DNA of 64,000 bases from a bacterium. Lineage in GTDB: Bacteria; Patescibacteriota; Minisyncoccia; Phycocordibacterales; UBA12079. Of the stretch, positions 5,841 through 62,953 are shown in pieces. The position numbers and the translations under genes are program-made. The stretch is taken from contig DAOWHH010000001.1 of assembly GCA_030641525.1 (NCBI GenBank), positions 2,626 to 66,625 of the forward strand, read 5' to 3'. Below the pieces are notes generated by a model, which was not told where the DNA came from, ran no database searches, and saw only the letters and a list, made by a program, of their open reading frames with translations. Within the stretch, counting starts at the first letter, position 1. Each line of letters begins with the position of its first letter.

Positions 5841-7264
5841 ATAAAAACTTTTATATTACTACTACTTTGCCTTATGTAAACGCAGATCCTCATGTGGGTT
5901 TTGCTTCTGAAATTTTACGAGCAGATTTTTTAGCTCGCTATAAAAGAGAGAGAGATTTTGATGTGTTTTTTAATACAGGAACTGATGAGCATGGAATGAA
6001 GATTCATCATAATGCTATGGAGCAGGGAGTAGATACTCAGGAATATGTAGATAAGTATGCAAAGAGATTTGATGATTTAAAGAAGGTGTTGAACTTGTCT
6101 TATGATAGTTTTATGAGAACAACCGACAAAGATCATATGAAGTCCACCCAAACTTTTTGGAAAAAATGTGAAGATAACGGAGATATTTATAAAAAGATAT
6201 ATAAAGTAAAATATTGTGTTGGTTGTGAATTAGAAAAAACAGATTCAGAATTAGTAGATGGTTGTTGTCCTTTACACCCAGGAAAAGAATTAGAAATAAT
6301 TGAAGAAGAAAATTATTTTTTCCGTTTTTCTAATTATGGAGAGAAACTTTTGAAATTATATGAAGACAATCTTGATTTTATCATTCCTGATTATCGTCAA
6401 AATGAAATTAAAAAATTCGTGGAGAGAGGATTGCAAGATTTCAGTATCTCTCGTCTGAAAGAAAAAATGCCTTGGGGAGTACCTGTTCCTGGGGATGATG
6501 AGCATGTAATGTATGTTTGGTTTGATGCTCTTGTGAACTATATTTCAGCTATTGGCTGGCCTAATGATATGGAGAAATTTGAAAAATGGTGGCCTGTTTT
6601 CCAAGTAGCTGGAAAAGATAATCTTCGTCAGCAATCGGCAATGTGGCAAGCTATGTTGATGTCTGCTGGTCTAGAACCTTCTAAGCAAATACATATTTTT
6701 GGGTTTATTAATTCTGGAGGACAAAAGATGAGTAAAAGTATCGGAAATGTAATCAATCCTTTAGATATTGTGAATGAATATGGTACTGACGCTTTAAGAT
6801 ATTATATTGCTAGGCATATAAATATGTATGAAGATTCTGATATGACTATGGATAAATTCAAAGAAGTTTATAACGCTGATTTAGCCAATGGATTAGGTAA
6901 TTTAGTGAGTCGGATAATGAAGATGGTTGAAAATTATGAAGTGAAATTTGAGCCAGAAGATTTTAAATTGGAAGGGTGTTCAGAATTTATAGAATTAATG
7001 AATGAATTTAAGGTGAATGAATCTATTGATTTAATTTGGCAAAAAATTAAATATTTAGATGAAAAGATTCAAGAAGAAGAACCTTTTAAGGTTGCTAAAG
7101 ATAATTTAGAAAAAGCTCAGAATATGTTGAAGAATTATCTTGTTGTACTTTGGGAAATATCAAATCTATTAATAATTTTTATGCCAGAAACAGCAGAAAA
7201 AATCCAAAATCTAATCAAAGAAAATAAATCTCCAAAAGAACCTTTGTTTCTAAGAAAAAAATAA
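5837..7264 (+). CDS. metG: methionine--tRNA ligase
   Basis: 475 aa. TTTLPYVNADPHVGF (HIGH region), a CxxC...CxxH knuckle and KMSKSIGN. The start overlaps the upstream stop by 4 nt. Confidence 0.95.
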   Translation: MNKNFYITTTLPYVNADPHVGFASEILRADFLARYKRERDFDVFFNTGTDEHGMKIHHNAMEQGVDTQEYVDKYAKRFDDLKKVLNLSYDSFMRTTDKDHMKSTQTFWKKCEDNGDIYKKIYKVKYCVGCELEKTDSELVDGCCPLHPGKELEIIEEENYFFRFSNYGEKLLKLYEDNLDFIIPDYRQNEIKKFVERGLQDFSISRLKEKMPWGVPVPGDDEHVMYVWFDALVNYISAIGWPNDMEKFEKWWPVFQVAGKDNLRQQSAMWQAMLMSAGLEPSKQIHIFGFINSGGQKMSKSIGNVINPLDIVNEYGTDALRYYIARHINMYEDSDMTMDKFKEVYNADLANGLGNLVSRIMKMVENYEVKFEPEDFKLEGCSEFIELMNEFKVNESIDLIWQKIKYLDEKIQEEEPFKVAKDNLEKAQNMLKNYLVVLWEISNLLIIFMPETAEKIQNLIKENKSPKEPLFLRKK

Positions 7265-7270
7265 ATAATT

Positions 7271-7372
7271 CCAAATTTAGCATACTTCTTCCTCAACCTC
7301 TGAAAAAATATTTTCAATGTATTGTAAACACACCTCAAATATTTTTTGACGAAGATGAAAAAGAAAACTTTT
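7271..7372 (+). repeat. copy 1 (degenerate) of an about 110-nt structured intergenic repeat
   Basis: CCAAATTTAGCATACTTCTTCCTCAACCTCTGAAAAAATATTTTCA aligns base for base with the 5' halves of the copies at 40790 and 50719. Confidence 0.7.
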
Positions 7373-7631
7373 AATTATTAGTCATTATTATGTTAAACGA
7401 GAAGAATATAAGACAAAACGAGAACAAAAAATGATTAATGAAGATATAAAGAAAATAAAATTAGCTTATAGAAAAGGACAATATAGAATAAGTGGAGGAT
7501 TGTACTCTGAGTTAGAATATCAAACCTATGCTAGTAAAGAATCTGCTAGAATAGAAGAATAACTTAAAGATCCAAAAAACCTTATAAGTATTGATGAGTT
7601 AATGAAAGTTTGAACTGTTATATAGTAATGG

Positions 7632-7672: not shown

Positions 7673-7954
7673 ATGATAATTGATTTTAAATCTAAAGAAA
7701 TAAATAAGATTTTTTTAGGTGGGTTTTCTAAAGTATTTTCACGTAATACTTGTCGAGTAATTCAAAGAAAATTATGGATGTTAGATGCCTCTACTAACTT
7801 ACAAGACTTAAGAATACCGCCATCAAATAGGTTAGAAAAATTGAAAGGGAAAAGAGTCGGACAACATAGTATTAGAATAAATAAAAAATGGCGAATTTGT
7901 TTTCGGTGGCAAAATGGAAATGCTTATCAAGTAGAAGTAGTTGATTATCACTAA
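7673..7954 (+). CDS. higB: HigB-like toxin (RelE/ParE superfamily, plasmid maintenance system killer)
   Basis: 93 aa. C-terminal LKGKRVGQHSIRINKKWRICFRWQNGNAYQVEVVDYH is the HigB signature. The toxin gene precedes the antitoxin gene. Confidence 0.85.
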   Translation: MIIDFKSKEINKIFLGGFSKVFSRNTCRVIQRKLWMLDASTNLQDLRIPPSNRLEKLKGKRVGQHSIRINKKWRICFRWQNGNAYQVEVVDYH

Positions 7955-7972
7955 AATCTTAAGTTAAATAAT

Positions 7973-8302
7973 ATGAGTACAAAAAACAAACAAAATAAAA
8001 AAATAAATAATATTCATCCTGGAGAGATTCTTTTGGAAGAATTTTTAAAACCTCTTAGCTTAAGTCAGTATCGTTTAGCTAAAGAAATTAATGTTTCTGC
8101 CTTGAGAATCAATGAAATTGTTCATCAAAAAAGAGCTATTACAGCTGATACAGCATTACGTTTATCTAGATTTTTTGGAAATTCAGCTCAGTTTTGGTTA
8201 AACTTACAAACAAAGTTTGATTTGTTGAATACTGAATTTAAGATTTCTGATCAAATTAGTCATAAAATTTCTCCTTTTAATTTTGTAAATGATAATTTAT
8301 AA
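7973..8302 (+). CDS. higA: HigA antitoxin (XRE-type HTH)
   Basis: 109 aa. IHPGEILLEEFLKPLSLSQYRLAKEINVSALRINEIVHQKRAITADTALRLSRFFGNSAQFWLNLQ is canonical HigA. Confidence 0.85.
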   Translation: MSTKNKQNKKINNIHPGEILLEEFLKPLSLSQYRLAKEINVSALRINEIVHQKRAITADTALRLSRFFGNSAQFWLNLQTKFDLLNTEFKISDQISHKISPFNFVNDNL

Positions 8303-11898: not shown

Positions 11899-12093
11899 TC
11901 AAACAGATGAATTTAATACTATTGGTGATAGTGGTAAGAAAATCGGTGAAAATTGGATTAGTAAGGCAATAGAAAGGGATGCAGAACGTATAATAGCCAG
12001 TAAAAAGAAATCAAAATCCACAGATAATCCTGTTGAAAAGAAGTGATAAATTAATAAAATAAAGTATAAATTGTGATAAATTTATAGAAAAAA

Positions 12094-12124
12094 TAAAAAA
12101 AGGTCGCTTTGCGACCTTTTTTCT
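12094..12124. terminator. bidirectional intrinsic terminator (protease gene / recA)
   Basis: A-run, AGGTCGC-TTT-GCGACCT, T-run. It lies between convergent genes. Confidence 0.8.
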
Positions 12125-12156
12125 TTTACTTTCAACTTTATGAACTTTAAAAACTT

Positions 12157-21336: not shown

Positions 21337-21365
21337 ATACTTAGTAGTTGGATTACTAAGTATTT
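21337..21365. repeat. 29-nt hairpin repeat, identical to 44134-44162
   Basis: ATACTTAGTAGTTGGATTACTAAGTATTT. Internally it is the hairpin TACTTAGTA-GTTGGAT-TACTAAGTA. Confidence 0.85.
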
Positions 21366-28155: not shown

Positions 28156-28701
28156 ATGGAAGAAAAAAAAGATGAAGTAGTTGAAGAAGCTACTGAAGTA
28201 AAGGAAGAAACAGTAGAAGCTCCTGTAGAAGAAGCTAAAACTGAAGATCCTAAACCTGAGGTCGGACAAGAAAAAAAGAAAGAAGTAGGAGAGGATACTA
28301 ACCCTGCAGACGGGCAAGATGTAGAAGTTCCTAAAAAATTTAAAACATTGGTAGAAGGAATTGAATCTATGTCTGTGCTTGATTTAAATGAATTAGTTAA
28401 ATTACTTGAAAAGAAATTTGGTGTATCAGCTGCAGCTGTTGCCGTAGCAGGTGGACCAATTGCTAGTGCTGATGACGGAGCAGAAGAAAAAAGTGCTTTT
28501 GATGTAGAACTTACATCTGTTGGAGATCAAAAAATAGCAGTTATTAAAGCTGTTAAAGGTGCTTTAGGATTAGGTCTGAAAGAGGCTAAAGATTTGGTTG
28601 ATGCAGCTCCTACGGTTTTGAAAAAGGATATGAAGAAAGAAGAAGCTGAATCTTTGAAGAAAGATATAGAAGAAGCTGGAGGAAAGGTTGAATTGAAATA
28701 A
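28156..28701 (+). CDS. rplL: 50S ribosomal protein L7/L12 with an about 58-aa acidic N-terminal extension
   Basis: 181 aa. The canonical part starts at [30 protein letters not shown] and ends [27 protein letters not shown]...AGGKVELK. Confidence 0.9.
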
Positions 28702-28702
28702 A

Positions 28703-28743
28703 TATTACCATAATCATTTTTACTAATCCTCACTCGAAATTAT
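28703..28743 (+). repeat. 3' half of the about 90-nt intergenic element (copy A); left arm of a 32-bp perfect inverted repeat
   Basis: AATCATTTTTACTAATCCTCACTCGAAATTAT (28712-28743) is the exact reverse complement of 30027-30058. Confidence 0.9.
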
Positions 28744-28747
28744 CATT

Positions 28748-28776
28748 AAAAAACAGCTATCGGATAGCTGTTTTTT
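28748..28776 (+). terminator. intrinsic terminator after rplL
   Basis: AAAAAACAGCTATC-G-GATAGCTGTTTTTT, embedded in a 47-bp palindrome (28739-28785). Confidence 0.8.
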
Positions 28777-28805
28777 AATGATAATTTTATTATTTATTAA
28801 TCCTC

Positions 28806-29412: not shown

Positions 29413-30030
29413 ATGGAAACTCTAACTAAATTATTTGGGACCTCAGCTAAAGTAAAAATAATGAGATTATTTTTATCTAATGAAGATCAGGTTTTTAATA
29501 ATGCTGATATTTCAAAAAAAACAAAGGTTTCTTTAGCTAATGTTAGAAAGGAATTAAATATTTTGGAAAAAATTAATCTTGTTAAAAGAAAGGTTTTCTA
29601 CAAAGAAATAGAAAAGAAAAAAGCTGGAAAAATAATTATCGAAAAGAAGAAAAATAATGGTTGGGTATTAGATAAGAGTTTTTCTTTATTAAGTCCTCTT
29701 AAAAACTTACTTATTAAAAGTAGTCCTTTGGAGTCCAAGGAAATAATATCTCGACTCAAAAAAGGAGGAAATCTTAAATTGGTGATAATATCAGGAGTAT
29801 TTGTACAAGAAAAGGATAGTAGGGTAGATATTTTAATAGTAGGGGACAATTTGGATAATTCTTATTTAGACAGGGCTATTCATACTATTGAATCTGAAAT
29901 AGGACAGGAATTAATATATTCTGTTCTAGAAACAGCTGATTTTATATACAGATTAGGAGTTTACGATAAATTATTAAGAGATATTTTAGATTTTTCTCAT
30001 AAAAAACTAATTAATAAATTGAATTTATAA
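29413..30030 (+). CDS. winged-helix transcriptional regulator with an uncharacterised C-terminal domain
   Basis: 205 aa. The N-terminal KVKIMRLFLSNEDQVFNNADISKKTKVSLANVRKELNILEKINLVKRK is an ArsR/MarR-like wHTH pattern. Confidence 0.55.
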   Translation: METLTKLFGTSAKVKIMRLFLSNEDQVFNNADISKKTKVSLANVRKELNILEKINLVKRKVFYKEIEKKKAGKIIIEKKKNNGWVLDKSFSLLSPLKNLLIKSSPLESKEIISRLKKGGNLKLVIISGVFVQEKDSRVDILIVGDNLDNSYLDRAIHTIESEIGQELIYSVLETADFIYRLGVYDKLLRDILDFSHKKLINKLNL

Positions 30031-30116
30031 TTTCGAGTGAGGATTAGTAAAAATGATTACGCTAGTATTTATTTTTACTATATCCGAGCGATGGAATTAT
30101 ATGCTTGCTTCATATA
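30027..30116 (-). repeat. full copy B of the about 90-nt intergenic element (inverted orientation)
   Basis: The reverse complement reads TATATGAAGCAAGCATATAATTCCATCGCTCGGATATAGTAAAAAT...ATTTTTACTAATCCTCACTCGAAATTAT. It overlaps the stop codon of the upstream gene. Confidence 0.9.
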
Positions 30117-30337
30117 GTTTATTTGCCTTAAGTGGGGTTAAAATTAGGATAAGTGGTTTATCCACAATTATTGTATTATATATCTCTTATATAATGATAT
30201 TATATGAATATATAGTAATAAAGGTCGTCAAATCATAAAACCAATGTTGTTTTTGGTGGTTAAGTTAAACTATCCGATCAAGTTTTTGGTATATGATAAT
30301 AATTAAAAAATAATTATTAATTATAAATTTAGAAAAT

Positions 30338-31039: not shown

Positions 31040-31112
31040 AATCACCCAACATCACTTTTGAGGAATAGAAATTTCTATTTCCCAAAAGTGATGTTGGGTG
31101 ATTTTTGGTTTT
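31040..31112 (+). terminator. long-stem terminator
   Basis: AATCACCCAACATCACTTTTG (31040-31060) pairs with CAAAAGTGATGTTGGGTGATT (31083-31103), followed by TTTGGTTTTT. Confidence 0.7.
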
Positions 31113-33317: not shown

Positions 33318-33410
33318 AATTATGTGAAGCAAGCATATAATTCCATCGCTCGGACATAGTAAAAATAAATATTTAAAAATAATCATTTTTACTAGTCCTC
33401 ACTCGAAATT
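33318..33410 (+). repeat. copy C of the about 90-nt intergenic element; fills the whole L29-S17 spacer
   Basis: ATGTGAAGCAAGCATATAATTCCATCGCTCGGACATAGTAAAAAT...ATTTTTACTAGTCCTCACTCGAAATT, ending at the rpsQ ATG. Confidence 0.9.
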
Positions 33411-33686
33411 ATGAAATTATTTAAAAACAAAAAAGAAAATCAGAAGATTGATGATAAAAAAGGAAAAACTCTAAAAGGAGAGGTTGTTTCTAATAAAATG
33501 GAAAAAACACTTGTAGTTTTGGTAAAAAGATTTGTTAAACATCCTAAATATGGTAAATATAGAACAATCACAAAAAGATATAAAGCTCATTATGATGAGG
33601 GAGAGTATGAGATTGGAGATAAAGTAGAGATAAAGGAATGTAATCCTATTTCAAAAGATAAAAAATTTAAGATAGTTAAGAGTTAA
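33411..33686 (+). CDS. rpsQ: 30S ribosomal protein S17
   Basis: LKGEVVSNKMEKTLVVLVKRFVKHPKYGKY. Confidence 0.9.
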   Translation: MKLFKNKKENQKIDDKKGKTLKGEVVSNKMEKTLVVLVKRFVKHPKYGKYRTITKRYKAHYDEGEYEIGDKVEIKECNPISKDKKFKIVKS

Positions 33687-34976: not shown

Positions 34977-35002
34977 ATTTTAAATAAAGTTAATATAAAT
35001 AG

Positions 35003-35030
35003 AAAACAGCTGTAAAATAGCTGTTTTTTT
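35003..35030 (+). terminator. terminator-like hairpin inside the spc operon (L5-S14 spacer)
   Basis: AAAACAGCT-GTAAAAT-AGCTGTTTTTTT. Same design as the rplL terminator. Confidence 0.55.
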
Positions 35031-35163
35031 ATTTGTATTCTGAGGTTTAATTTTGAAATAAAAAAAAACGAACAAAAATCAACATTTAATTGACTTTAAT
35101 AGGTGTTTTTGATAGGATTAACGAAGTTATCCGCTATAAGGCGGTATTAATTTATAGATAAAA

Positions 35164-35859: not shown

Positions 35860-35948
35860 TATTATATGAAGTAAGCATATAATTACATCGTTCGGGTTAT
35901 ATAAAAATAATATTAAAATAATCTTTTTATAAATCCTCACTTGAAATT
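35860..35948 (+). repeat. copy D (diverged) of the about 90-nt intergenic element; fills the whole S8-L6 spacer
   Basis: TATATGAAGTAAGCATATAATTACATCGTTCGGGTTATATAAAAAT...CTTTTTATAAATCCTCACTTGAAATT, ending at the rplF ATG. Confidence 0.85.
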
Positions 35949-36482
35949 ATGAGTAGAATAGGACAACAACAATTGGAAATTCCAGCAAATACCGAAATTA
36001 ATTTGGTTGATAATTTTGTGGTAGTAAAAGGTCCCTTAGGGGAATTAAAAAGAGAATTAAGACCAGAAATAAAAGTTGAGATAAAAGATTCAATTGTTTC
36101 GGTTAACCCTACAAACAAATCTCCTTTTGCAAAAGCTCTTTGGGGAACTTTTGCATCACATATTTTAAATATGATAAAAGGAGTGAATACTCCTTACGAA
36201 AAGAAATTAATTCTTGAAGGTGTAGGATTTAAATCAGAGATTAAGGGTGATAAGTTGGTTTTAAGTTTAGGATTTTCTCATTTAGTTGAGATAAATATTC
36301 CTAAGGATCTGAAAGTGACAGCTGAAAAGAATAATATTTCAGTATCAGGAATTGATAAAGAATTAGTTGGTCAATTTGCTGCTAAAATAAGAGCCAAGAA
36401 AAAAGCTGAACCATATAAAGGTAAAGGTTTTAGGTATCATGATGAGGTAGTACGCAGAAAGCAAGGTAAGAAGAATGTTTAG
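35949..36482 (+). CDS. rplF: 50S ribosomal protein L6
   Basis: MSRIGQQQLEIPANTEINL and PYKGKGFRY. Confidence 0.93.
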   Translation: MSRIGQQQLEIPANTEINLVDNFVVVKGPLGELKRELRPEIKVEIKDSIVSVNPTNKSPFAKALWGTFASHILNMIKGVNTPYEKKLILEGVGFKSEIKGDKLVLSLGFSHLVEINIPKDLKVTAEKNNISVSGIDKELVGQFAAKIRAKKKAEPYKGKGFRYHDEVVRRKQGKKNV

Positions 36483-40021: not shown

Positions 40022-40789
40022 GTGTTACCAAATATCTATACAAAAGAAGAAATAGAGATTTTAAGAGAAGGCGGTAAAAGGCTTAATTTTATTTTGCATG
40101 AGGTAGCAGAACATGTCAGAGAAGATGTAACACCTGATGAATTAAATAAAATTGCTAAAGATTTAATCAAAGAGGGTGGAGATCAAGCTTCTTTTTTGAA
40201 TTACACTGTGGAAGGTCAAAGACCTTATCCATCAGCTTTATGTGTATCTATTAATGATGAGGCAGTTCATGGTTTATCAAAAGATAATTTCAGAAAATTA
40301 CAGGAAGGAGATATTGTGAATATTGATTTGGGTTTAACTCATAAAGGTCTTGTGACGGACAAAACTTTGATGTTAGGGGTGGGTAAATTAAAATCAGAAG
40401 ATATTAACTTAATTGAAACTACCAAATTAGCTTTAGAAGCTGGTATTGAAGAAATTAAAGCTGGTAAAACAACAGGAGATATTGGAAATGCTATCGAAAA
40501 AATTGTTAAAAAAAGAGGTTTTAATGTCGTTAAAGAATTGGGTGGGCATGGAGTTGGTCATAATGTTCATGAAGAACCTTTTGTGCCTAATTACGGAAAA
40601 AAAGGAGATGGAGATATTTTAAAGGAAGGAATGGTCTTGGCCCTTGAGCCAATTGTGACATCAGGAAGTGGTAAAATTTATACAGCTGAAGATGGACATA
40701 CTTACAAATCTGAAGATGGGAAAAATGTAGCCCAATGGGAAGATACAGTGTTGGTGACTAAAAGTGGCTTTGAAATTTTAACAAGATGA
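40022..40789 (+). CDS. map: type I methionine aminopeptidase
   Basis: 255 aa with GTG start. The metal-ligand context D..D..H..E..E is visible (NIDLGL, GHGVGHNVHEEP, LALEP, WEDTVLVT). Confidence 0.93.
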   Translation: MLPNIYTKEEIEILREGGKRLNFILHEVAEHVREDVTPDELNKIAKDLIKEGGDQASFLNYTVEGQRPYPSALCVSINDEAVHGLSKDNFRKLQEGDIVNIDLGLTHKGLVTDKTLMLGVGKLKSEDINLIETTKLALEAGIEEIKAGKTTGDIGNAIEKIVKKRGFNVVKELGGHGVGHNVHEEPFVPNYGKKGDGDILKEGMVLALEPIVTSGSGKIYTAEDGHTYKSEDGKNVAQWEDTVLVTKSGFEILTR

Positions 40790-40913
40790 AAATAAACCCA
40801 AACTTGGCACATTTCTTCGTCAGCTTCGGAAAAATTATTTTCACCTTACCATCAGTAAGGCTCAAAAAATTTTTCCCCGCTTTCTCGAACTGTACTCAAG
40901 TTTGGGTTTATTT
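40790..40913 (+). repeat. copy 2 of the about 110-nt structured intergenic repeat
   Basis: 17-bp perfect terminal inverted repeat AAATAAACCCAAACTTG / CAAGTTTGGGTTTATTT. Conserved core GGAAAAATTATTTTCACC, then hairpin CCTTAC-CATCA-GTAAGG, then CTCAAAAAATTTTTCC. Confidence 0.85.
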
Positions 40914-41819: not shown

Positions 41820-44063
41820 GTGATGATGAGATATGAAAAGATATTGAGAAATATTTTGTTGGGAGCTGTTTTTGTAATTCCTTTCATTCCTTTATTGGTA
41901 CCTTCTTCTTTGTTTTTCCCATATATTGTGGGAAAAAATCTTTTATTTAGAGTTCTGGTTGAAGTGATGTTTGGTATATGGGCTGTATTAGCTATATTTG
42001 ATAAAAAATATCGTCCACGATTTTCTTTTATTTTTACTGGAATTCTTTCTCTAGTAGGAATAATGTTTTTTGCGAATTTATTAGGAATAAACTCTCTAAA
42101 AGGTTTTTGGAGTAATTATGAAAGAATGGAAGGGTGGATTACTTTATTACATCTACTCGGTTATTTCGTTGTTATGACAAGTGTTCTTGATACAAGAAAA
42201 TTATGGAATCGTTTTTTTAATACCTCTCTTGCTGTTAGTGTCTGGGTTGGGTTATATGGTATCTCTCAAATAGCTGGTTGGACAATAGCTCATCAAGGAA
42301 CATCTCGTCTTGATATTAGTTTTGGTAACGCATCTTACTTAGCCATCTATACAATCTTTCATATTTTTCTAGCTCTATTTCTACTTGTCCGCCATAGTTT
42401 TCTTGGCCGCAGTAGCCTTGGTAAAGAAGGATTTATTCGTCACAAGAAATGGAATGATTGGGTTGTTTATACTTATATTGGAGTAATTTTATTAAATATT
42501 TATATTCTTTATCATACAGCTACTAGAGGGGCTATTTTAGGTTTTATAGGATCTATATTATTGATTTCGTTTCTATTAGCTATTTTTGAAAAAGAAAATA
42601 AAAATTTGAGAAAAACAGGGATAGGAATATTAGTTGGAACTTTATTGTTTGTGGGAGGGTTTATAGCTCTAAAAGATGCAAGTTTTATTAGAAATAATAG
42701 TATTTTAAATCGTTTTGCAACTATTTCTTTAGAGGAGAGTACAACAAAATCTCGTTTTATGATTTGGAATATGGCTTGGCAAGGAATTAAAGAGAGACCA
42801 ATTTTAGGCTGGGGTCAAGAATCTTTTAATTATATTTTTAACGAAACCTATGATCCAGGAATGTATGATCAGGAAGAATGGTTTGATAGAACTCATAATG
42901 TTTTTATGGATTGGTTAGTAGTTGGTGGCTTTTTAGGTCTTTTGGCTTATTTATCTCTTTTTGGAACATTGCTTTATTATTTATGGAGGAAAAAACATGA
43001 TAATGGTTTTTCAAATTTTGAGAAAAGTATTTTTACTGGCTTGTTAGCTGGATATTTTGTTCATAATCTTTTTGTTTTTGATAATATCACTAGTTATATT
43101 TTGTTCTTCACTATTTTAGCTTTCATTCATAATCAAATTGATTTTAATAAAGAAGAAAAAGAAAAAAAAGATATATTTTTAGATAATCTTGATGAAGATA
43201 CTAAGCTTAAGACATTTGTTCCAGTTTTGATATTTCTAATGATTTTTTCTCTTTATTTTTTTAATGTAAAAGGGGCTTTAGCTAATAGAAATTTATTATT
43301 AGCTCTTAGTCCTCATCCCGAAATTGGTCTATCGGAAAATCTAAGATATTTTGAAAAAGCATTATCGTATAATTCTTATGCTAATCAAGAAATTAGAGAA
43401 CAATTATTGCAATTTGTGGTAAAAACAAAGGATGTTGGTGCCAATCAAGATACAAAAAATAATTTGTTTGAGTTAGCAAAATTAGAAGCTGAAAAAGAAA
43501 TTGAAAGAGATCCTGAAAATGCTAGAATAGAAGTTCTGATTGGTTCTTTTTTTTCAAATTTTGGAAAAAATGATGAAGCATTGAGACATTTTGAAAGAGC
43601 TTTAACTCTTTCACCCAACAAACAATCTATTCATTTTGGAATGGGTTATATCTATATAACCCAAAAAGAATATCAAAAAGCTTTTGATATTTTCAAAGAA
43701 GCTTATAAATTGGATTCAAGATATGAAAAAGCTAAATCATTATATGCGATATCATCCATTTATGCAGGTAAGAATGATGTAGTAATGTCTTTATATGGAA
43801 CCGATATAATACCAGATCCCAATTTTTTAAGTGCTTATCGTGATACAAGACAATTATCAAAAATGATTCAAGTAGCAGAGGCTATTGTAGAAAATACCCC
43901 TAATAATCCTCAGTCTCATATTTCTTTATCCGCAGCATATTTTGAAAATGGCCAAAAATCTAAGTCAATTGAAGAGATAAGAAAAGCTATAGAATTAGAT
44001 CCAAATTTTAAAGCTCAAGGGGAATTATTTATTAATAGAATTCAGTCTGGGCAAAAACCTTAA
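41820..44063 (+). CDS. O-antigen ligase/polymerase-like polytopic membrane protein fused to C-terminal TPR repeats
   Basis: 747 aa. About 12 TM helices with a Wzy_C-like loop (YHTATRGAILGF) and C-terminal TPR patterns. Start is ambiguous (GTG 41820, ATG 41823 or 41826). Confidence 0.65.
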   Translation: MMMRYEKILRNILLGAVFVIPFIPLLVPSSLFFPYIVGKNLLFRVLVEVMFGIWAVLAIFDKKYRPRFSFIFTGILSLVGIMFFANLLGINSLKGFWSNYERMEGWITLLHLLGYFVVMTSVLDTRKLWNRFFNTSLAVSVWVGLYGISQIAGWTIAHQGTSRLDISFGNASYLAIYTIFHIFLALFLLVRHSFLGRSSLGKEGFIRHKKWNDWVVYTYIGVILLNIYILYHTATRGAILGFIGSILLISFLLAIFEKENKNLRKTGIGILVGTLLFVGGFIALKDASFIRNNSILNRFATISLEESTTKSRFMIWNMAWQGIKERPILGWGQESFNYIFNETYDPGMYDQEEWFDRTHNVFMDWLVVGGFLGLLAYLSLFGTLLYYLWRKKHDNGFSNFEKSIFTGLLAGYFVHNLFVFDNITSYILFFTILAFIHNQIDFNKEEKEKKDIFLDNLDEDTKLKTFVPVLIFLMIFSLYFFNVKGALANRNLLLALSPHPEIGLSENLRYFEKALSYNSYANQEIREQLLQFVVKTKDVGANQDTKNNLFELAKLEAEKEIERDPENARIEVLIGSFFSNFGKNDEALRHFERALTLSPNKQSIHFGMGYIYITQKEYQKAFDIFKEAYKLDSRYEKAKSLYAISSIYAGKNDVVMSLYGTDIIPDPNFLSAYRDTRQLSKMIQVAEAIVENTPNNPQSHISLSAAYFENGQKSKSIEEIRKAIELDPNFKAQGELFINRIQSGQKP

Positions 44064-44070
44064 AACAAAA

Positions 44071-44160
44071 TACTTAGTAATCCAACTACTAAGTTTTTAA
44101 GGTATAAACAGTCAATATATTAAGTATACCACCATACTTAGTAGTTGGATTACTAAGTAT
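44071..44160. repeat. 24-bp perfect inverted repeat separated by about 40 nt
   Basis: TACTTAGTAATCCAACTACTAAGT (44071-44094) is complementary to ACTTAGTAGTTGGATTACTAAGTA (44136-44159). The right arm is identical to 21337-21365. Confidence 0.9.
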
Positions 44161-44171
44161 TTATAATATGT

Positions 44172-49778: not shown

Positions 49779-50705
49779 TTACTTATTAAAATATTGTTGA
49801 AAAATAGGCATTATTTGTTTTTTTCGAGAGACTACATTATCTACAAATAATACTCCGTTTTGATCCTCGGTATTAAATAATTTTATAAATAATTTACTAT
49901 CTTCTTCATCAGCACAAAGTGTATAACCCTCTTCTTCTAAAATATCAATTATCATGAAGTAAATTCCTTGTAGATTATCTTTTTCTTTGATCTCTTTCAG
50001 TTTTTTTACAATTTCATCCTTTCTTTTCAAACCAAATTCTTTGTCGGTTGTTTCCATTACTCCGATTCCAAATTTTTGTCCTTCTGCAAAATCAAAAACC
50101 TTATAATCTAATTTTATTAATTCTTCAGTATCGATGTTCCCTAGATCTGATTTAGCATTAAACATTTCTAGTGAGAATTTTTCTAAATCTTCAATCTGAG
50201 CAATTTTATTTAGTTTTTCAGTTAATTCTTTATCTTGATCTGTTGTAGTAGGGGAACGGAAATGAAGGGTATCTGAAATTATTCCTGCTAAAAGTAAGGA
50301 AGCATTTTGAGGTGAAATTTCTCGTCCTGATTTAAAATATTTTTTAGCAATAATTGAACAGGATGATCCAAGTGGTTCAATATGAATTCTGATAGGTTTG
50401 TCTGTTTCTAATTTTACTTTGTGATGATCAATAATTTCAACGATATCTAAATCATTGATATTATTAATACTTTGAGTTTCTTCATTATGATCAAGTAAAA
50501 TAATTTCTGAATTTTTGGGGATTTCGTGAATATGTTCTGGTTCTTTTACATTGAATTTTTTGAAGACAAATTTTGTTTCATTATTTAAATGACCTAAAGC
50601 ATAGGCTTTAGCTTCAATATTTTTTTGTTTTAGATAGTCTTCATAAACTAGGGCTGAACAGATTGTGTCTGTGTCGGGACTTATGTGTCCAATAATATAC
50701 TTCAT
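49779..50705 (-). CDS. ppaC: family II (Mn-dependent, DHH/DHHA2) inorganic pyrophosphatase
   Basis: MKYIIGHISPDTDTICSALVYEDYL, LLDHNE, IIDHHK and the FRSPTTT pattern. The true start is taken as the ATG at 50705, because the 59-codon upstream extension in the ORF track runs through a repeat element. Confidence 0.88.
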   Translation of the reverse strand: MKYIIGHISPDTDTICSALVYEDYLKQKNIEAKAYALGHLNNETKFVFKKFNVKEPEHIHEIPKNSEIILLDHNEETQSINNINDLDIVEIIDHHKVKLETDKPIRIHIEPLGSSCSIIAKKYFKSGREISPQNASLLLAGIISDTLHFRSPTTTDQDKELTEKLNKIAQIEDLEKFSLEMFNAKSDLGNIDTEELIKLDYKVFDFAEGQKFGIGVMETTDKEFGLKRKDEIVKKLKEIKEKDNLQGIYFMIIDILEEEGYTLCADEEDSKLFIKLFNTEDQNGVLFVDNVVSRKKQIMPIFQQYFNK

Positions 50706-50718
50706 AGTTTTATAACTT

Positions 50719-50827
50719 CCAAAATCGGCATATTTCTTTATCAATTTCAGGAAAATTATTTTCACCGTATGCTCGATACGGCTCAAAAAATTTTCCTGAA
50801 ATTGATAAAGAAATATACTCAATTTTG
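50719..50827 (+). repeat. copy 3 of the about 110-nt structured intergenic repeat
   Basis: 27-bp perfect stem (50729-50756 with 50790-50816) around the conserved core GGAAAATTATTTTCACC, then hairpin CCGTAT-GCTCG-ATACGG, then CTCAAAAAATTTTCC. Confidence 0.9.
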
Positions 50828-50925
50828 AAAATTCTAAATGATTAGTCTTTAATTTTTGATAACTATCTAAAAAATATAGCAAATTTAGAGAAAATTAGAA
50901 AGGTTAAAATAAAATATCTAAATTT

Positions 50926-50965
50926 TTCAAAAAAGAGGCCCGACTACTTGTAGTAGTCGGGCCTC
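50926..50965 (-). terminator. intrinsic terminator of the infC-rpmI-rplT operon
   Basis: 13-bp GC-rich stem GAGGCCCGACTAC / GTAGTCGGGCCTC with a T-run on the minus strand. Confidence 0.85.
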
Positions 50966-53616: not shown

Positions 53617-53667
53617 TTTTGGTTAAAATTATTTTAAATTATAAATTATAAATTTTAGATTTTAAAT

Positions 53668-53706
53668 TAAAGACGGGCGAGGTAAAGTCTCGCCCGTCTT
53701 TCTTTT
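53668..53706 (+). terminator. intrinsic terminator
   Basis: AGACGGGCGAG-GTAAAGT-CTCGCCCGTCT followed by a T-rich run. Confidence 0.88.
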
Positions 53707-53734
53707 AAATTACAAACTATACAATTATTAATTC

Positions 53735-59512: not shown

Positions 59513-60163
59513 ATGATAGAAAAGTTATTAAATTTTACTTCGTTTTTCGCAAAAACATTAATTTTGTGTTTGTTTGTTTTTATTTTTATTTTTTATGGCT
59601 TTGCTTTATTTGAACCGTCTAGAGTTATGGCTGTGACTGATGAAGTGGTAGTTTCTCAAACAGTGACATCTGGTATTACAATTAGCTCTCCTGACGATAT
59701 TACCTTAACAGCTTTAAGTTTAACTCAAAATTCTGCAGTTGGAAGTACTACATGGACAGTTATTACTAACAACCAAGCTGGATATACTCTTTCTGTGAAA
59801 GCGTCGTCATCCCCAGCTTTGGTTGATAGTACAACCAGTGAATCATTTACTGATTATACTTCAAGTGGTAAAGAAGCTTGGTCAGTCTCTGATGCTTATG
59901 AATTTGGATGGTCAGCTTTTGGTGATGATGTAACAGGTCATGGAACTGATACAAATTGTGTTGCAACAACAGATGTTCCTAGTTCCACTTTACTTTGGGA
60001 GGGTTTTAATGGAACAGCAGATATTCAGATGGGGAGTAGTACTAGTGAAACAATTCAGGCTGGAACAGATACAACACTTTGTGTAGCTACAGAACAAGAT
60101 ACTGTATTTGCACCATCAGGTACCTATGCCGCTACCCTCACAGCTACGGCTGTCGTTCAATAA
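59513..60163 (+). CDS. secreted beta-rich surface protein, WxL-like domain (paralog of 61338..62117)
   Basis: 216 aa with an N-terminal hydrophobic signal. Shares these blocks with the paralog: LSLTQNSAVGSTTWTV, ATSESF, FGWSAFGDDVTG, LLWEGFN, GTDTTLCVATEQDTVFAPSGTY. Confidence 0.55.
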   Translation: MIEKLLNFTSFFAKTLILCLFVFIFIFYGFALFEPSRVMAVTDEVVVSQTVTSGITISSPDDITLTALSLTQNSAVGSTTWTVITNNQAGYTLSVKASSSPALVDSTTSESFTDYTSSGKEAWSVSDAYEFGWSAFGDDVTGHGTDTNCVATTDVPSSTLLWEGFNGTADIQMGSSTSETIQAGTDTTLCVATEQDTVFAPSGTYAATLTATAVVQ

Positions 60164-60173
60164 ATCTTATTTT

Positions 60174-61334
60174 ATGACTTTTTTTTCAAAAACTGAAAAT
60201 AAAAAAATACTTTTTTTAATGATTCTACTAGGATGTTTTTTGCCTCTTTGTTTTTCAAGTGCTTATGAAATTAGAGATACTGATACTGAGGTAAGAGATG
60301 ATTTTGTACTTGAACCTGCAAAATTGGAAGCATTTCTTGATCCTGGGGCTTTTGATACTAAGATAATTAGTATTTTAAATAGAACTGATAAAACTTTGGA
60401 CTTTAAAATAGAGCTAGAAGATTTTTCAGGTTCTATGGATCCTAATAGAACAGTTATTTTATCGGGTGATGAAAGAGGTCCATATTCCCTTAAAGATTAT
60501 TTACATCCAGAAGTTGATTCTTTTACACTTAAGTCTGGTCAAAAAATAAATTTTACAGTAGATATTGATATTCCTTTGGATGCAGAACCAGGGGGTTTAT
60601 ATGGTTCGGTTTTAGTTTTGAGTGAGTCTAATGATTTTGAACAAGGAGGTAATACTACAATTGTTTCTCGTTTAGGAGCATTATTTTTTATAAATGTAAA
60701 TGGTGAAGTTACTAGAAGTGGTAAATTGACCTCTTTCAAAAAAATCGATTCTCCAGAAAAAGGAACGACTTTTGAATTATTATTTGTTAATGATGGTAGT
60801 ACTCATTTAAATTTGTCCGGACATATACAAATTTTTAACTCTTTAGGAACTCAGATAGATGAGATAGAAATTCCTACATATTTTGCTATGCCAAATTCGG
60901 TTCGTTTTAGAGAATTACATTGGAATGTCAGTAAATTATTTGGTAGATATAAGGCTGTTGTTGTTGTAGATCGTGGCTATGGAGGTTTAACAGACGAATT
61001 ATCTTTAATTTTTTGGGCTATTTCTGTTAAATTGGTAGCAATTATTCTAGGAGTATTAATTTTGATTATTCTTCTTATTATTTGGTTAAGTAAGACCTTT
61101 GATTTTACGATTACGAGGGAACCCCCCTCCACTGAGGTTTCCGCTGATGCTAATGCTATGGCGGACAAGATGGCAGTCAATAAAAAAAGTGTAGATGATA
61201 ATCAATCGCAAATACAGTCTCAACCAATAATACAGTCTCAATCTCCACCACAAACTCAAATACCAAACGAAACTTCAATATCTGAAATACAAATACCTGG
61301 TTCTGATAATCAAGGATTAAATGATTTAAAATAA
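60174..61334 (+). CDS. surface-complex protein resembling the DUF916/DUF3324 (CscA-like) type; C-terminal TM anchor and Q/P-rich tail
   Basis: Signal peptide (LFLMILLGCFLPLCFSSA), two beta-sandwich-like halves, TM helix (VKLVAIILGVLILIILLIIWL), then an about 85-aa Q/S/P-rich tail. The ATG at 60174 is preferred over 60108. Confidence 0.5.
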   Translation: MTFFSKTENKKILFLMILLGCFLPLCFSSAYEIRDTDTEVRDDFVLEPAKLEAFLDPGAFDTKIISILNRTDKTLDFKIELEDFSGSMDPNRTVILSGDERGPYSLKDYLHPEVDSFTLKSGQKINFTVDIDIPLDAEPGGLYGSVLVLSESNDFEQGGNTTIVSRLGALFFINVNGEVTRSGKLTSFKKIDSPEKGTTFELLFVNDGSTHLNLSGHIQIFNSLGTQIDEIEIPTYFAMPNSVRFRELHWNVSKLFGRYKAVVVVDRGYGGLTDELSLIFWAISVKLVAIILGVLILIILLIIWLSKTFDFTITREPPSTEVSADANAMADKMAVNKKSVDDNQSQIQSQPIIQSQSPPQTQIPNETSISEIQIPGSDNQGLNDLK

Positions 61335-61337
61335 ATT

Positions 61338-62117
61338 GTGTCTATTAATAATAAAAAAAAGAAAATCGGAGTTATTATTTTGTTTTTGTCGATGTCAATA
61401 ACAACTTCAGCTTATTTTAGTTCATCTGGTAATTATAGATTACAAAGTGACTCTCTTAATATGGGTGGAATACTTTCTACATCCACGAATTATTATCTAG
61501 AAGATACTCTTGGTGAAGTAGCAACTGGTATATCTACTAGTACTGTATACGATATGAATGCTGGTTATCAACAAATGCAAAGATCTGTTATTTCTGTTAG
61601 TGCTGCCTCAGATATAAATATGCCTGAATTAAGTCTAACCCAAAATACAGGAGTGGGTAGTACTACATGGACAATTACTACTGATAGCCCAGCAGGTTAT
61701 TCTGCTGATGTTTATACTATTATTGATGCAGCTTGTCCTGATCGTGATGGACAGGGAGCGATTGATTCTTTATGTGACTCAGCAACAAGTGAATCGTTTG
61801 CGGATATTTCAATATCAAAGCATTTATGGAGTGTTGTTAATGAATACTCTTTTGGTTGGTCTGCTCATGGAGATGATGTTTCAGGTTTTGGACCCGATAA
61901 TACTTGTCTGAATGCTGTTGGTGTTAGTGTTCCTAGTGGTGGTTTATTATGGCAAGGTTTTAATGCTAGCACACTTTACCAAATTGCTAGCTCTACACAA
62001 AGAACTGGTCCTAATGGTACAGATACAACTCTTTGTTTAGCTATTGAGCAAGATACTGTTCTTGCCCCATCGGGTGACTATACTGCTAATATAGTAATAA
62101 CAGCTGTGTCTTTGTAA
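61338..62117 (+). CDS. secreted beta-rich surface protein, WxL-like domain (paralog of 59513..60163)
   Basis: 259 aa with GTG start and a signal peptide. The N-terminal motif NYRLQSDSLNMGG...NYYLEDTLGE precedes the shared blocks. Confidence 0.55.
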   Translation: MSINNKKKKIGVIILFLSMSITTSAYFSSSGNYRLQSDSLNMGGILSTSTNYYLEDTLGEVATGISTSTVYDMNAGYQQMQRSVISVSAASDINMPELSLTQNTGVGSTTWTITTDSPAGYSADVYTIIDAACPDRDGQGAIDSLCDSATSESFADISISKHLWSVVNEYSFGWSAHGDDVSGFGPDNTCLNAVGVSVPSGGLLWQGFNASTLYQIASSTQRTGPNGTDTTLCLAIEQDTVLAPSGDYTANIVITAVSL

Positions 62118-62146
62118 TTAAAAGAAATAGTATATAATCATTAATA

Positions 62147-62953
62147 ATGAGTATTAAAAATATAATATTAGGAATTTTTATATTAATACCTACTTTTTGT
62201 CTAGGTGCTGATGAGTTAATTATAGAACAGGAGGTTTATAATATTTGTAATCAAAATAGACTTTGTGAAATAGATTTAGGAGAAACAGTTCTTACTTGTC
62301 CTACGGATTGTTTTGCAGGAGGAGGTCATCCTGAGTTGATAGACCAAGTATTAGGAGGGTCTATTACAATAAGTGATATCAAAATCTCAATAATAGCAGA
62401 TATCATAACCATATCTTGGGTTACTGATAAACCATCATCTTCTGTTTTGGTTTTAGGGGATGAAATAGGTAATATTGAAGAATTTTATTTAGATGAACTT
62501 TATTCTATAGATCATAGTATTAGTTTGGAAGACTTAAATCTTAAAAAAGAATATTTTTTTAAAATTTTGTCTGAAGGAGTCTATGGTGATAATAATTATG
62601 ATAAAGCCAAACTTTTTGTTATAAAAGGATATGGTTCGGAAGAGACAAAAGAAGATATAGAAATAAAAACTGAAGCATTTGATTTGGTTGAAGAAAAATT
62701 TATAAGTTCTACAAAAATAGATGTTTTTCCTAGTGATTTTAAATATCCTATGTTAGTGTCAAAAGAAATTAGTGATACTTATTACCAAAATATTTGTAAT
62801 ATTCTCTCTAAATATTGGTTGGCCTTTAAAAATAATATTATTGTCATTTATATTTATGAATATAAATGGTTGCTTGTAATTCTGCTCGGAATTATATTTT
62901 TATTATTTTTAATTTTTAAGAAAAAAGATAATAAAAAAGAAGAAAATAAATAA
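62147..62953 (+). CDS. secreted Cys-motif / FN3-like protein with a C-terminal TM anchor
   Basis: 268 aa with a signal peptide. Cys motif CNQNRLCEIDLGETVLTCPTDC, an FN3-like ITISWVTDKPSSSVLVLG segment, and a C-terminal WLLVILLGIIFLLFLIF-KKKDNKKEENK. Confidence 0.5.
   Translation: MSIKNIILGIFILIPTFCLGADELIIEQEVYNICNQNRLCEIDLGETVLTCPTDCFAGGGHPELIDQVLGGSITISDIKISIIADIITISWVTDKPSSSVLVLGDEIGNIEEFYLDELYSIDHSISLEDLNLKKEYFFKILSEGVYGDNNYDKAKLFVIKGYGSEETKEDIEIKTEAFDLVEEKFISSTKIDVFPSDFKYPMLVSKEISDTYYQNICNILSKYWLAFKNNIIVIYIYEYKWLLVILLGIIFLLFLIFKKKDNKKEENK

Follow-up and report, generated by a model that had tools for sequence, protein, structure and literature searches.

The 64 kb window analysed here (contig DAOWHH010000001.1, a Patescibacteria genome) carries three copies of one ∼115-nucleotide (nt) imperfect palindrome: one after metG, one directly after map and one upstream of ppaC. 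The three stretches are copies of a previously undescribed hairpin-forming repeat of Patescibacteria. Annotation by protein family identifies the flanking genes as those for MetRS, Map, NDK, a DHH/DHHA2 pyrophosphatase (ppaC-like), L20 and IF3, in agreement with the gene names given in an earlier sequence-only reading of this DNA. The copies are numbered along the window and were scored with a covariance model (CM) trained with copies from other genomes and, of the window, copy 2 only. Loci fetched from other genomes and metagenome contigs, ∼1 Mb in total, carry L-numbers (L003, L039, L164 and so on). The features on which the analysis rests are the following.

40790-40913, − strand (the better-folding 'model' strand): copy 2, complete, ∼115 nt imperfect palindrome; CM score 117.2 bits, E = 5e-30
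50714-50834, − strand: copy 3, complete, in the minority 'reverse' configuration; CM score 82 bits, E = 4e-20 on the − strand and 48.6 bits on the + strand
7265-7347, − strand: copy 1, truncated and decaying; CM score 47.7 bits, E = 2e-10 (CM match 7265-7379)
40787-40789, + strand: map stop codon TGA, abutting the foot of the hairpin; open reading frame (ORF) 40022-40789, Pfam Peptidase_M24
7262-7264, + strand: metG stop codon TAA, 0 nt from the CM match of copy 1
50703-50705, − strand: true ppaC start codon; the alignment with the L039 orthologue begins at residue 1
40829-40875, + strand: conserved core of copy 2; exact motif matches at 40829-40845 and 40859-40873

The three sites had been proposed from the sequence by eye, and a repeat finder, alignment, the covariance model and folding all recover them, in one absolute orientation as had been claimed. 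The top family of the repeat finder comprises 7271-7346 (70%), 40798-40873 (the reference) and 50719-50794 (79%), and a three-way alignment of the window copies has a mean column identity of 73%. The CM match of copy 2 itself spans 40793-40911. A search of the whole window with the filters switched off gave nothing beyond the three copies above 25 bits, the weaker matches being generic hairpins. Folding z-scores against dinucleotide shuffles lie between −9 and −15 for copies 2 and 3.

Copy 2 has the predicted 17 bp perfect terminal inverted repeat (40790-40806 and 40897-40913). Its core was described earlier as conserved and unpaired, a description that has to be corrected: most of it is a paired inner stem, itself conserved, interrupted by small mismatch loops that are likewise conserved. 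The inner A/T stem is formed by GAAAAATTATTTT and AAAAAATTTTT, and the mismatch loop reads TC/CTC on the + strand, which is GA/GAG on the − strand. The apical hairpin CCTTAC-CATCA-GTAAGG (40844-40860) keeps its pairing despite a change in sequence, with CCTTAC/GTAAGG in one copy versus CCGTAT/ATACGG in another, exactly as the sequence-only reading had noted. The core columns of copy 2 are invariant or near-invariant in alignments of 23 and 69 copies. The + strand had been taken as the strand to describe, but in all three copies it is the − strand that folds best: −57.1 versus −42.3 kcal/mol for copy 2, and −63.2 versus −47.2 and −30.7 versus −12.4 kcal/mol for the other two. The map mRNA, a + strand transcript, thus holds the weaker-folding complement of copy 2. 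The window map gene ends in TGA, while TAA stands at the homologous codon in the six relatives that were read (L163-L166, L171 and L172).

Copy 3 is also picked up by the repeat finder as an inverted repeat with 54 nt arms. Its stem is indeed perfect, at 28 bp instead of the 27 bp first counted. On the model strand the 5' arm perfectly complements the 3' arm, and it is the 3' arm that keeps the family sequence; the outer GA loops have consequently been erased. We interpret the perfected arm as the expected product of template-switch 'quasipalindrome correction'. Copy 3 ends 9 nt upstream of the ppaC ATG and its model strand is the ppaC strand. The start at 50882 chosen by the ORF finder is a false extension of ppaC by 59 codons through copy 3, as had been suspected. 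Copy 1 was called degenerate and is a truncated copy, although the family similarity ends at ∼7347 and not at 7372. Its distal outer arm is gone; the half facing the metG stop codon survives, as do the inner stem and the apical region. A HigB-like and HTH toxin-antitoxin pair (7673-8302) follows metG and copy 1.

Beyond the window, a scan with an exact pattern, which took in one genome per species, returned ∼22 true members, all of them in metagenome-assembled genomes of Patescibacteria. The hosts are three Campbellbacteria, Buchananbacteria, Paceibacterota, unclassified Patescibacteria and one contig binned as Saccharibacteria. The covariance model R1, built from a 23-sequence alignment, then found 41 copies in the loci of these members and ∼30 more in metagenome contigs, with E-values down to 1e-33. 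A homology search of the kind proposed earlier, made over these loci and contigs, did recover many further copies in Patescibacteria and allowed their orientation relative to genes to be tallied. Comparison with Rfam 15, likewise proposed, gave no family at or above its gathering threshold, the only gathering-level match in the window being a tRNA; relaxed scans of copies 2 and 3 returned only long hairpins of the plant and animal miRNA type, at 47 bits or less versus thresholds of 74-140. No description of this repeat family was found in the literature. A pattern scan of IMG/VR for viral carriage gave four chance matches and zero CM match.

The consensus structure is a long hairpin with very few unpaired positions. 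RNAalifold on the 23-sequence alignment yields 42 pairs, 30 of them with compensatory changes. In the model alignment of 69 copies 92.8% of the cells are paired, compared with 68% in shuffles and ∼44% for slid partners, and compensatory double changes occur in 38 of the 42 pairs. Unpaired stretches are limited to loops of 2-3 nt and an apical loop of 3-5 nt. Read from the outside on the model strand, the outer stem comes first (∼20 bp, variable, with one small bulge and a U·G wobble that is conserved); next are C[GA]G·G, a covarying 3 bp helix, [GA] and an A/U inner stem of 9-12 bp; at the apex another [GA], closed by an invariant G·U, leads into an apical hairpin of 6-8 bp (CCGUAy/rUACGG). 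On the 3' side UGA, GAA and AC-R-AAG lie opposite the 5' loops. The ends of the element read, for example, AAAAAAC...GTTTTTT or TTCCAAAAT...ATTTTGGAA.

The two strands are not equivalent. Of 70 copies, 68 fold better on the model strand (mean −45.2 versus −32.5 kcal/mol), and within its helices G·U exceeds A·C by 242:37, or 136:35 when the two conserved wobbles are left out. The internal loops are purine-rich on both sides on the model strand and appear as C/U-rich mismatches on the opposite strand. As modelled, the purine-rich loops could be drawn as tandem sheared G·A pairs. That the loops have persisted in distant lineages, although quasipalindrome correction is able to remove them, argues for selection on them. 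The earlier suggestion of a structured RNA is therefore borne out as far as conserved blocks and covarying stems go, but it becomes doubtful for the + strand, because the strand selected for pairing is the opposite one, which in most members is antisense to the adjacent gene. In a copy after dnaA (L035:4897-5035) a GC-rich perfect palindrome of 20 nt, CCTGCCTGCCGGCAGGCAGG, is nested beside the apical hairpin. A different palindrome of ∼98 nt follows ndk in two relatives (L166:11513-11610 and L171:12395-12491) and scores 25-29 bits with the model. Its termini, GTCCCAAAATTTTG...CCAAAATTTTGGGAC, resemble the outer stem of the ∼115 nt family while its core differs; judged by this resemblance it may be a sister family.

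The position of the element relative to genes is equally specific. The 71 copies form 59 arrays, for which adjoining ORFs of at least 80 codons were counted. In 42 of the 59 a stop codon lies 0-7 nt (mostly 0-4 nt) from one specific end of the element, compared with 2 of 59 for the other end, and the last codons of the upstream gene sometimes fall within the outer stem. The abutting gene is encoded opposite the model strand, so that its mRNA carries the weaker version with pyrimidine loops, which in the window is the + strand for metG and map. About 85% of the arrays have this one orientation. The regular abutment to stop codons, the preferred orientation and the broad occurrence in Patescibacteria all went beyond the sequence-only reading, which had three copies to go by. 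Some eight arrays are reversed with their sequence intact, and the same physical end then lies 3-26 nt upstream of a start codon; the reversed arrangement of element and ppaC seen in the window is also found in L164 (Map 77% identical) and L039 (PpaC 70% identical). Housekeeping genes, scattered over the genome, lie upstream of the copies; they include xerD-like, mreB, gatC, secA, gyrB, rplL, ssb, dut, lysS, dnaA and dnaN, and further uvrA, groEL, gap, atpG, atpD, ftsA, metG and map. The next gene often starts 13-130 nt downstream, as in gatC-gatA, dnaA-dnaN and atpG-atpD, and many copies are thus internal to operons. TGA is depleted among the stop codons next to an element (1 of 42 versus 66 of 460 controls), although the effect is weak (p = 0.03).

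Several simple accounts of this placement were discarded. Tandem copies have periods of 119-127 nt, which are not multiples of 3, and the frame that follows the stop codon has a median of 14 open codons versus 10 and 14 in the other two frames. The element is thus non-coding, and these two observations rule out coding or stop-codon readthrough. Replication strand does not set the orientation: in L039, L014, L011 and L023 the whole locus lies on the model strand, and the unit of element and ppaC keeps its relative orientation while the context of the locus flips. As for an internal sigma-70 promoter, visual inspection of the conserved motif GAC(A/G)AAG gives a decent −35/−10 pair in L164 alone and none in L039 or the window, and a promoter scan was unconvincing.

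The family turns over at some loci and is retained at others. None of six syntenic relatives (Map 69-82% identical) has a copy after map, and in some of them only 4-65 nt separate map from the next gene; L163, L165 and L166 have zero copies in 20 kb. In two relatives RelB/YafQ-like toxin-antitoxin pairs follow map (L163:10967-11530 and L164:10834-11366), and gene-end junctions that hold repeats look like general landing sites for mobile DNA. The Campbellbacteria genome DOLZORAL124_30_42 (loci L003, L025, L033, L034, L036, L038 and L040) has at least three subfamilies that differ in their inner and outer stems and have the same loops. Copies of a subfamily at different loci are 88-94% identical, the 'variable' stems included. 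Tandem arrays in this genome consist of 2-3 direct units with linkers of 6-7 nt, in the orders A-B-C, A-C, B-A, C-B and others. Orthologous sites are occupied across species at dnaA, dnaN, gap, atpG and ssb, where the flanking proteins are 65-90% identical, and upstream of ppaC. After atpG the element is 90% identical, compared with 83% for the end of the coding sequence and 51% for the rest of the spacer.

Genes related to REP-associated tyrosine transposases (RAYT) occur in the same lineages. Three RAYT-like Y1_Tnp genes have the HUH motif PNHYHLIL:

L172:6357-7153, RAYT-like Y1_Tnp gene
L171:10767-11525, RAYT-like Y1_Tnp gene
L013:3987-4768, RAYT-like Y1_Tnp gene

They are flanked on both sides by genome-specific palindromes of 25-29 nt (CTAGGAGGTTSAACCTCCTAG, ATGGAGAGGTCSGACCTCTCCAT or ATGTGCTAAGCTnAGCTTAGCACAT). 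In L171 and L172 the Y1_Tnp unit sits between map and ndk, the junction that holds copy 2 in the window, and one of the flanking palindromes abuts the map stop codon. The best NCBIfam match in these two loci is 'REP-associated tyrosine transposase' (46.7 and 48.1 bits; cut-off 80), and over all three loci the NCBIfam REP_Tyr_transpos scores are 39-48 bits, all below the 80-bit cut-off. The gene in L013, a Campbellbacteria contig, lies 3 kb from two copies of the ∼115 nt element. By its sequence and gene order this layout appears to be the classical REP-RAYT arrangement in Patescibacteria. Hairpin-specific HUH enzymes and REP-like repeats thus probably exist in these lineages and inhabit gene-end junctions. 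The flanking palindromes are a sequence family different from the ∼115 nt element, which makes RAYT a candidate class of mobilizer and not a demonstrated partner.

The window also has canonical terminators, with a GC-rich stem and a T-run, 14-40 nt after stop codons:

50935-50965, − strand, canonical terminator after rplT
53637-53733, canonical terminator
28741-28779, canonical terminator
34994-35032, canonical terminator
12091-12141, canonical terminator

With these in place after stop codons, the genome does not depend on long palindromes for termination. Together with the conserved blocks and the covarying stems, these separate terminators bear out the earlier view that the copies are a true repeat family and not generic AT-rich terminators.

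We lean, at somewhat better than an even chance, towards a new REP/BIME/ERIC-like family of interspersed non-coding imperfect palindromes of ∼115 nt that are co-transcribed as a gene-end hairpin. The copies would be spread or homogenized by a DNA-level, hairpin-dependent process that leaves no target duplication; an HUH/RAYT-type enzyme, another structure-specific enzyme or gene conversion are possible routes. Folding of the strand antisense to the neighbouring gene would supply the substrate, which would explain why the G·T/G·U wobbles and G·A loops are on that strand and why target-site duplications are missing. After insertion the element would be a co-transcribed hairpin in the 3' untranslated region or between cistrons, its foot containing or touching the stop codon. 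By analogy with ERIC and RNase E, and with Correia elements and RNase III, this hairpin would most likely be a signal for mRNA 3'-end formation, processing, stability or partial termination. The orientation in which the mRNA has the weaker hairpin at its stop codon would be the one favoured by selection.

A number of observations weigh against this family reading. It is the template strand of the adjacent gene that folds, and no standard model predicts this strand to be single-stranded. The orientation does not follow the presumed replication strand. Long retention at orthologous sites and strict abutment to stop codons would be explained by a dedicated function no less well than by selfish spread. 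A classical insertion signature is also missing. The search for target-site duplications that had been suggested found none at the copy boundaries: direct repeats at the hairpin boundaries are 0-1 nt long in 67 of 72 copies, a test limited by the fuzzy ends of the element and by the fact that a duplication of the TA..TA type would be complementary to itself. A TA mirrored on the side opposite the stop codon is present in 3 of 36. There is no exact empty/filled pair from near-identical strains to define the ends; in the search for a strain-level empty site of copy 2, contigs with an identical Map protein carry the same 233 nt spacer. None of the copies was found to have a transposase, RAYT or recombinase gene beside it, and the RAYT-like genes described above are flanked by palindromes of another family. 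A parent insertion sequence with the same ends was not noticed in the ∼1 Mb of fetched loci, in which no systematic search for one was made.

The element nevertheless resembles the REP, ERIC and MITE repeats of better-studied bacteria. Like REP, BIME and REPIN elements, the ∼115 nt repeats are interspersed extragenic palindromes, kept as hairpins at gene ends and free of target duplication. Like them they form genome-specific subfamilies and mosaic tandem clusters, and the RAYT-like Y1_Tnp genes flanked by short palindromes in the same lineages are a further point in common. However, REP elements are 20-40 nt long with a 5' GTAG, whereas here a single hairpin of ∼115 nt has three conserved internal loops; REPINs are inverted REP doublets, whereas the copies in the present arrays are direct; and no RAYT gene was found flanked by the ∼115 nt element. 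ERIC/IRU elements, imperfect palindromes of 127 bp from enterobacteria, are similar in size, in forming a long imperfect hairpin, in being intergenic and transcribed and in lying near stop codons. Their effect on the upstream mRNA depends on orientation, an RNase E site being exposed in a ribosome-dependent manner (PMC2229807), and they have terminal inverted repeats with a terminal TA and a target-site duplication (Table 1 of PMC2229807). The ∼115 nt element has no sequence similarity to them and no detected target-site duplication, and it occurs at ∼85% in one orientation across several Patescibacteria lineages. The Correia/NEMIS elements of Neisseria are likewise small palindromic repeats co-transcribed with neighbouring genes, and their RNA hairpins have been proposed to be RNase III substrates that modulate mRNA levels (PMC2229807). 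By this analogy RNase III processing appears the most plausible RNA-level consequence of a stem of ∼50 bp, although the 24 bp terminal inverted repeats, TA duplication, IHF site and promoter elements of Correia elements are not seen in the ∼115 nt element. The earlier alternative of a miniature inverted-repeat transposable element (MITE) holds in part: terminal inverted repeats, small size and multiple copies agree with a classical MITE, whereas the direct repeats of 0-1 nt do not amount to its target-site duplication.

Two alternatives give the specific placement and the strand asymmetry a dedicated role. The elements may be cis-acting RNAs and not mobile repeats, the structure abutting the stop codon coupling translation termination to the fate of the mRNA; we consider this possible but clearly less probable. 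A ribosome at the stop codon would melt the basal ∼12-15 bp and expose a site for cleavage, termination or protein binding, and the CU-rich internal loops (CCUC, resembling an anti-Shine-Dalgarno sequence) would be the functional surface on the sense RNA. Such a role is in line with the 42 of 59 arrays at 0-7 nt from a stop codon and the ∼85% in one orientation, with retention at orthologous sites (after atpG even better than the flanking coding sequence), with asymmetric loops that are conserved across distant lineages although copy 3 of the window shows that they can be erased, and with the separate existence of canonical terminators 14-40 nt from stop codons. It is harder to reconcile with selection for pairing (G·U over A·C, G·A loops) on the antisense and not the mRNA strand, with ∼8 of 60 arrays that are reversed with intact sequence, with close relatives that lack the element at the same gene ends and have no replacement, and with near-identical subfamily copies at unrelated loci and in tandem mosaics. 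The same asymmetry recalls attC sites. These, for example the VCRs of ∼120 bp, are imperfect palindromes 3' of an ORF in a fixed orientation, with an antisense strand that folds better and conserved unpaired positions. A comparable single-stranded DNA site for recombination or transposition, in which a structure-specific recombinase reads the folded bottom strand and thereby fixes the orientation, would match the ∼115 nt length, the position immediately 3' of ORFs, the fixed orientation, the better-folding bottom strand, the conserved non-complementary positions and the lack of a detected target duplication. The likeness in antisense folding is one of folding property only. Direct reading of the alignments shows that the RYYYAAC/GTTRRRY core sites (R''/R') are absent; the centre is conserved and the base variable, the opposite of attC; the neighbours are dispersed housekeeping genes and not cassette arrays; tandem copies have no ORF between them; and no integrase was found near any copy in the flanks examined. 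We therefore regard an attC-like site as improbable.

Ordinary (bidirectional) intrinsic terminators that resemble each other through AT-rich composition or convergence are a very improbable explanation. The element is a hairpin at gene ends with an A/T-rich basal stem, and a run of at least six A in eight on the antisense side would be a U-tract in the RNA of that strand. Of 72 copies, 33 have such a run at the end next to the stop codon (control gene ends, 29%), and 17 have at least six T in eight at the far end, on the sense side (background, 11%). These enrichments are modest; a terminator scan also picks the 3' end of copy 2. Most copies nevertheless lack a good U-tract, many are operon-internal and lie 13-40 nt before the next start codon, and separate short GC-rich terminators exist in the genome. 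CM E-values down to 1e-33, conserved blocks and genome-specific subfamilies with 88-94% identity point to common descent; plain terminators are largely excluded by this homology and by the operon-internal copies. Least probable of all are guide-RNA-like units akin to TIGR arrays or to box C/D-like RNAs, with a Nop-domain (Tas) or L7Ae-type protein as their binding partner. TIGR stem-loop arrays have been described in the Candidate Phyla Radiation (CPR), and the CPR host range, the tandem hairpins, the variable palindromic stems and the short conserved motifs, of the G·A type in one genome here, are shared (PMC12045711). TIGR units have two unpaired spacers of 8-12 nt flanked by box C/D and an adjacent tas gene (PMC12045711), whereas in the ∼115 nt element almost every position is paired, dual spacers with box C/D are absent and the 'variable' segments complement one another. 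Most copies stand alone and abut the stop codons of housekeeping genes, no tas gene adjoins them, and no Nop-domain gene is present among the Pfam-annotated neighbours of the fetched syntenic loci and the window copies. A broader idea, which we put forward only tentatively and hold to be rather unlikely, is that the element is more than selfish DNA and serves as a Patescibacteria-wide 'gene-end punctuation', a strand-specific structured nucleic acid with conserved G·A-rich loops that dock a protein. Acting as template-strand DNA, it would represent a novel class of sites for hairpin-specific recombination or nicking; acting as RNA, it would couple translation termination at the abutting stop codon to mRNA 3'-end formation in organisms whose regulatory machinery is minimal.

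The window contains other repeats. A different family with two modules (ATAATTTCGAGTGAGGATTAGTAAAAATGATTA and TCCGAGCGATGGAATTATATGCTTGCTTCATAT) occurs at 28696-28743, 30027-30119, 33318-33422 and 35861-35950, in both orientations and between ribosomal-protein genes, with a related copy at L166:12049-12146; this is presumably the first repeat family of the sequence-only reading. A hairpin of 27-29 nt, ATACTTAGTAGTTGGATTACTAAGTAT, has three copies (21337-21365, 44070-44098 and 44134-44162), two of which form an inverted pair downstream of an ORF that ends at 44063. At 31040-31103, intergenic in the ribosomal-protein region, lies a near-perfect palindrome of 64 nt with 32 nt arms that are 94% complementary and no spacer. 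Tandem paralogous genes at 59513-62953 account for direct repeats of 121 nt and 74 nt with 70-81% identity (59668/61583 and 60061/62015).

The ∼115 nt repeat is a well-defined, previously undescribed addition to a known kind of element, unusual in its abutment to stop codons and in the structural selection on the antisense strand. This combination of strict stop abutment and a better-folding antisense strand is not predicted by standard REP, MITE or terminator models. For annotation the element is a hazard: it lengthens ORFs falsely, as with ppaC in the window and the orthologous genes of L039 and L164, and it may be taken for a terminator. An entry in Rfam or in a repeat library could be started from the covariance model and the alignment. 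In a bulk survey inverted repeats were denser in Campbellbacteria than in any other phylum, with no cause named (bioRxiv 10.1101/2024.09.29.615628), and the ∼115 nt family is a concrete contributor to this density. Very small, streamlined Patescibacteria genomes nevertheless keep, and in some cases amplify, a palindrome of ∼115 nt at the ends of core genes such as dnaA, dnaN, gyrB, atp, secA, groEL, map and metG.

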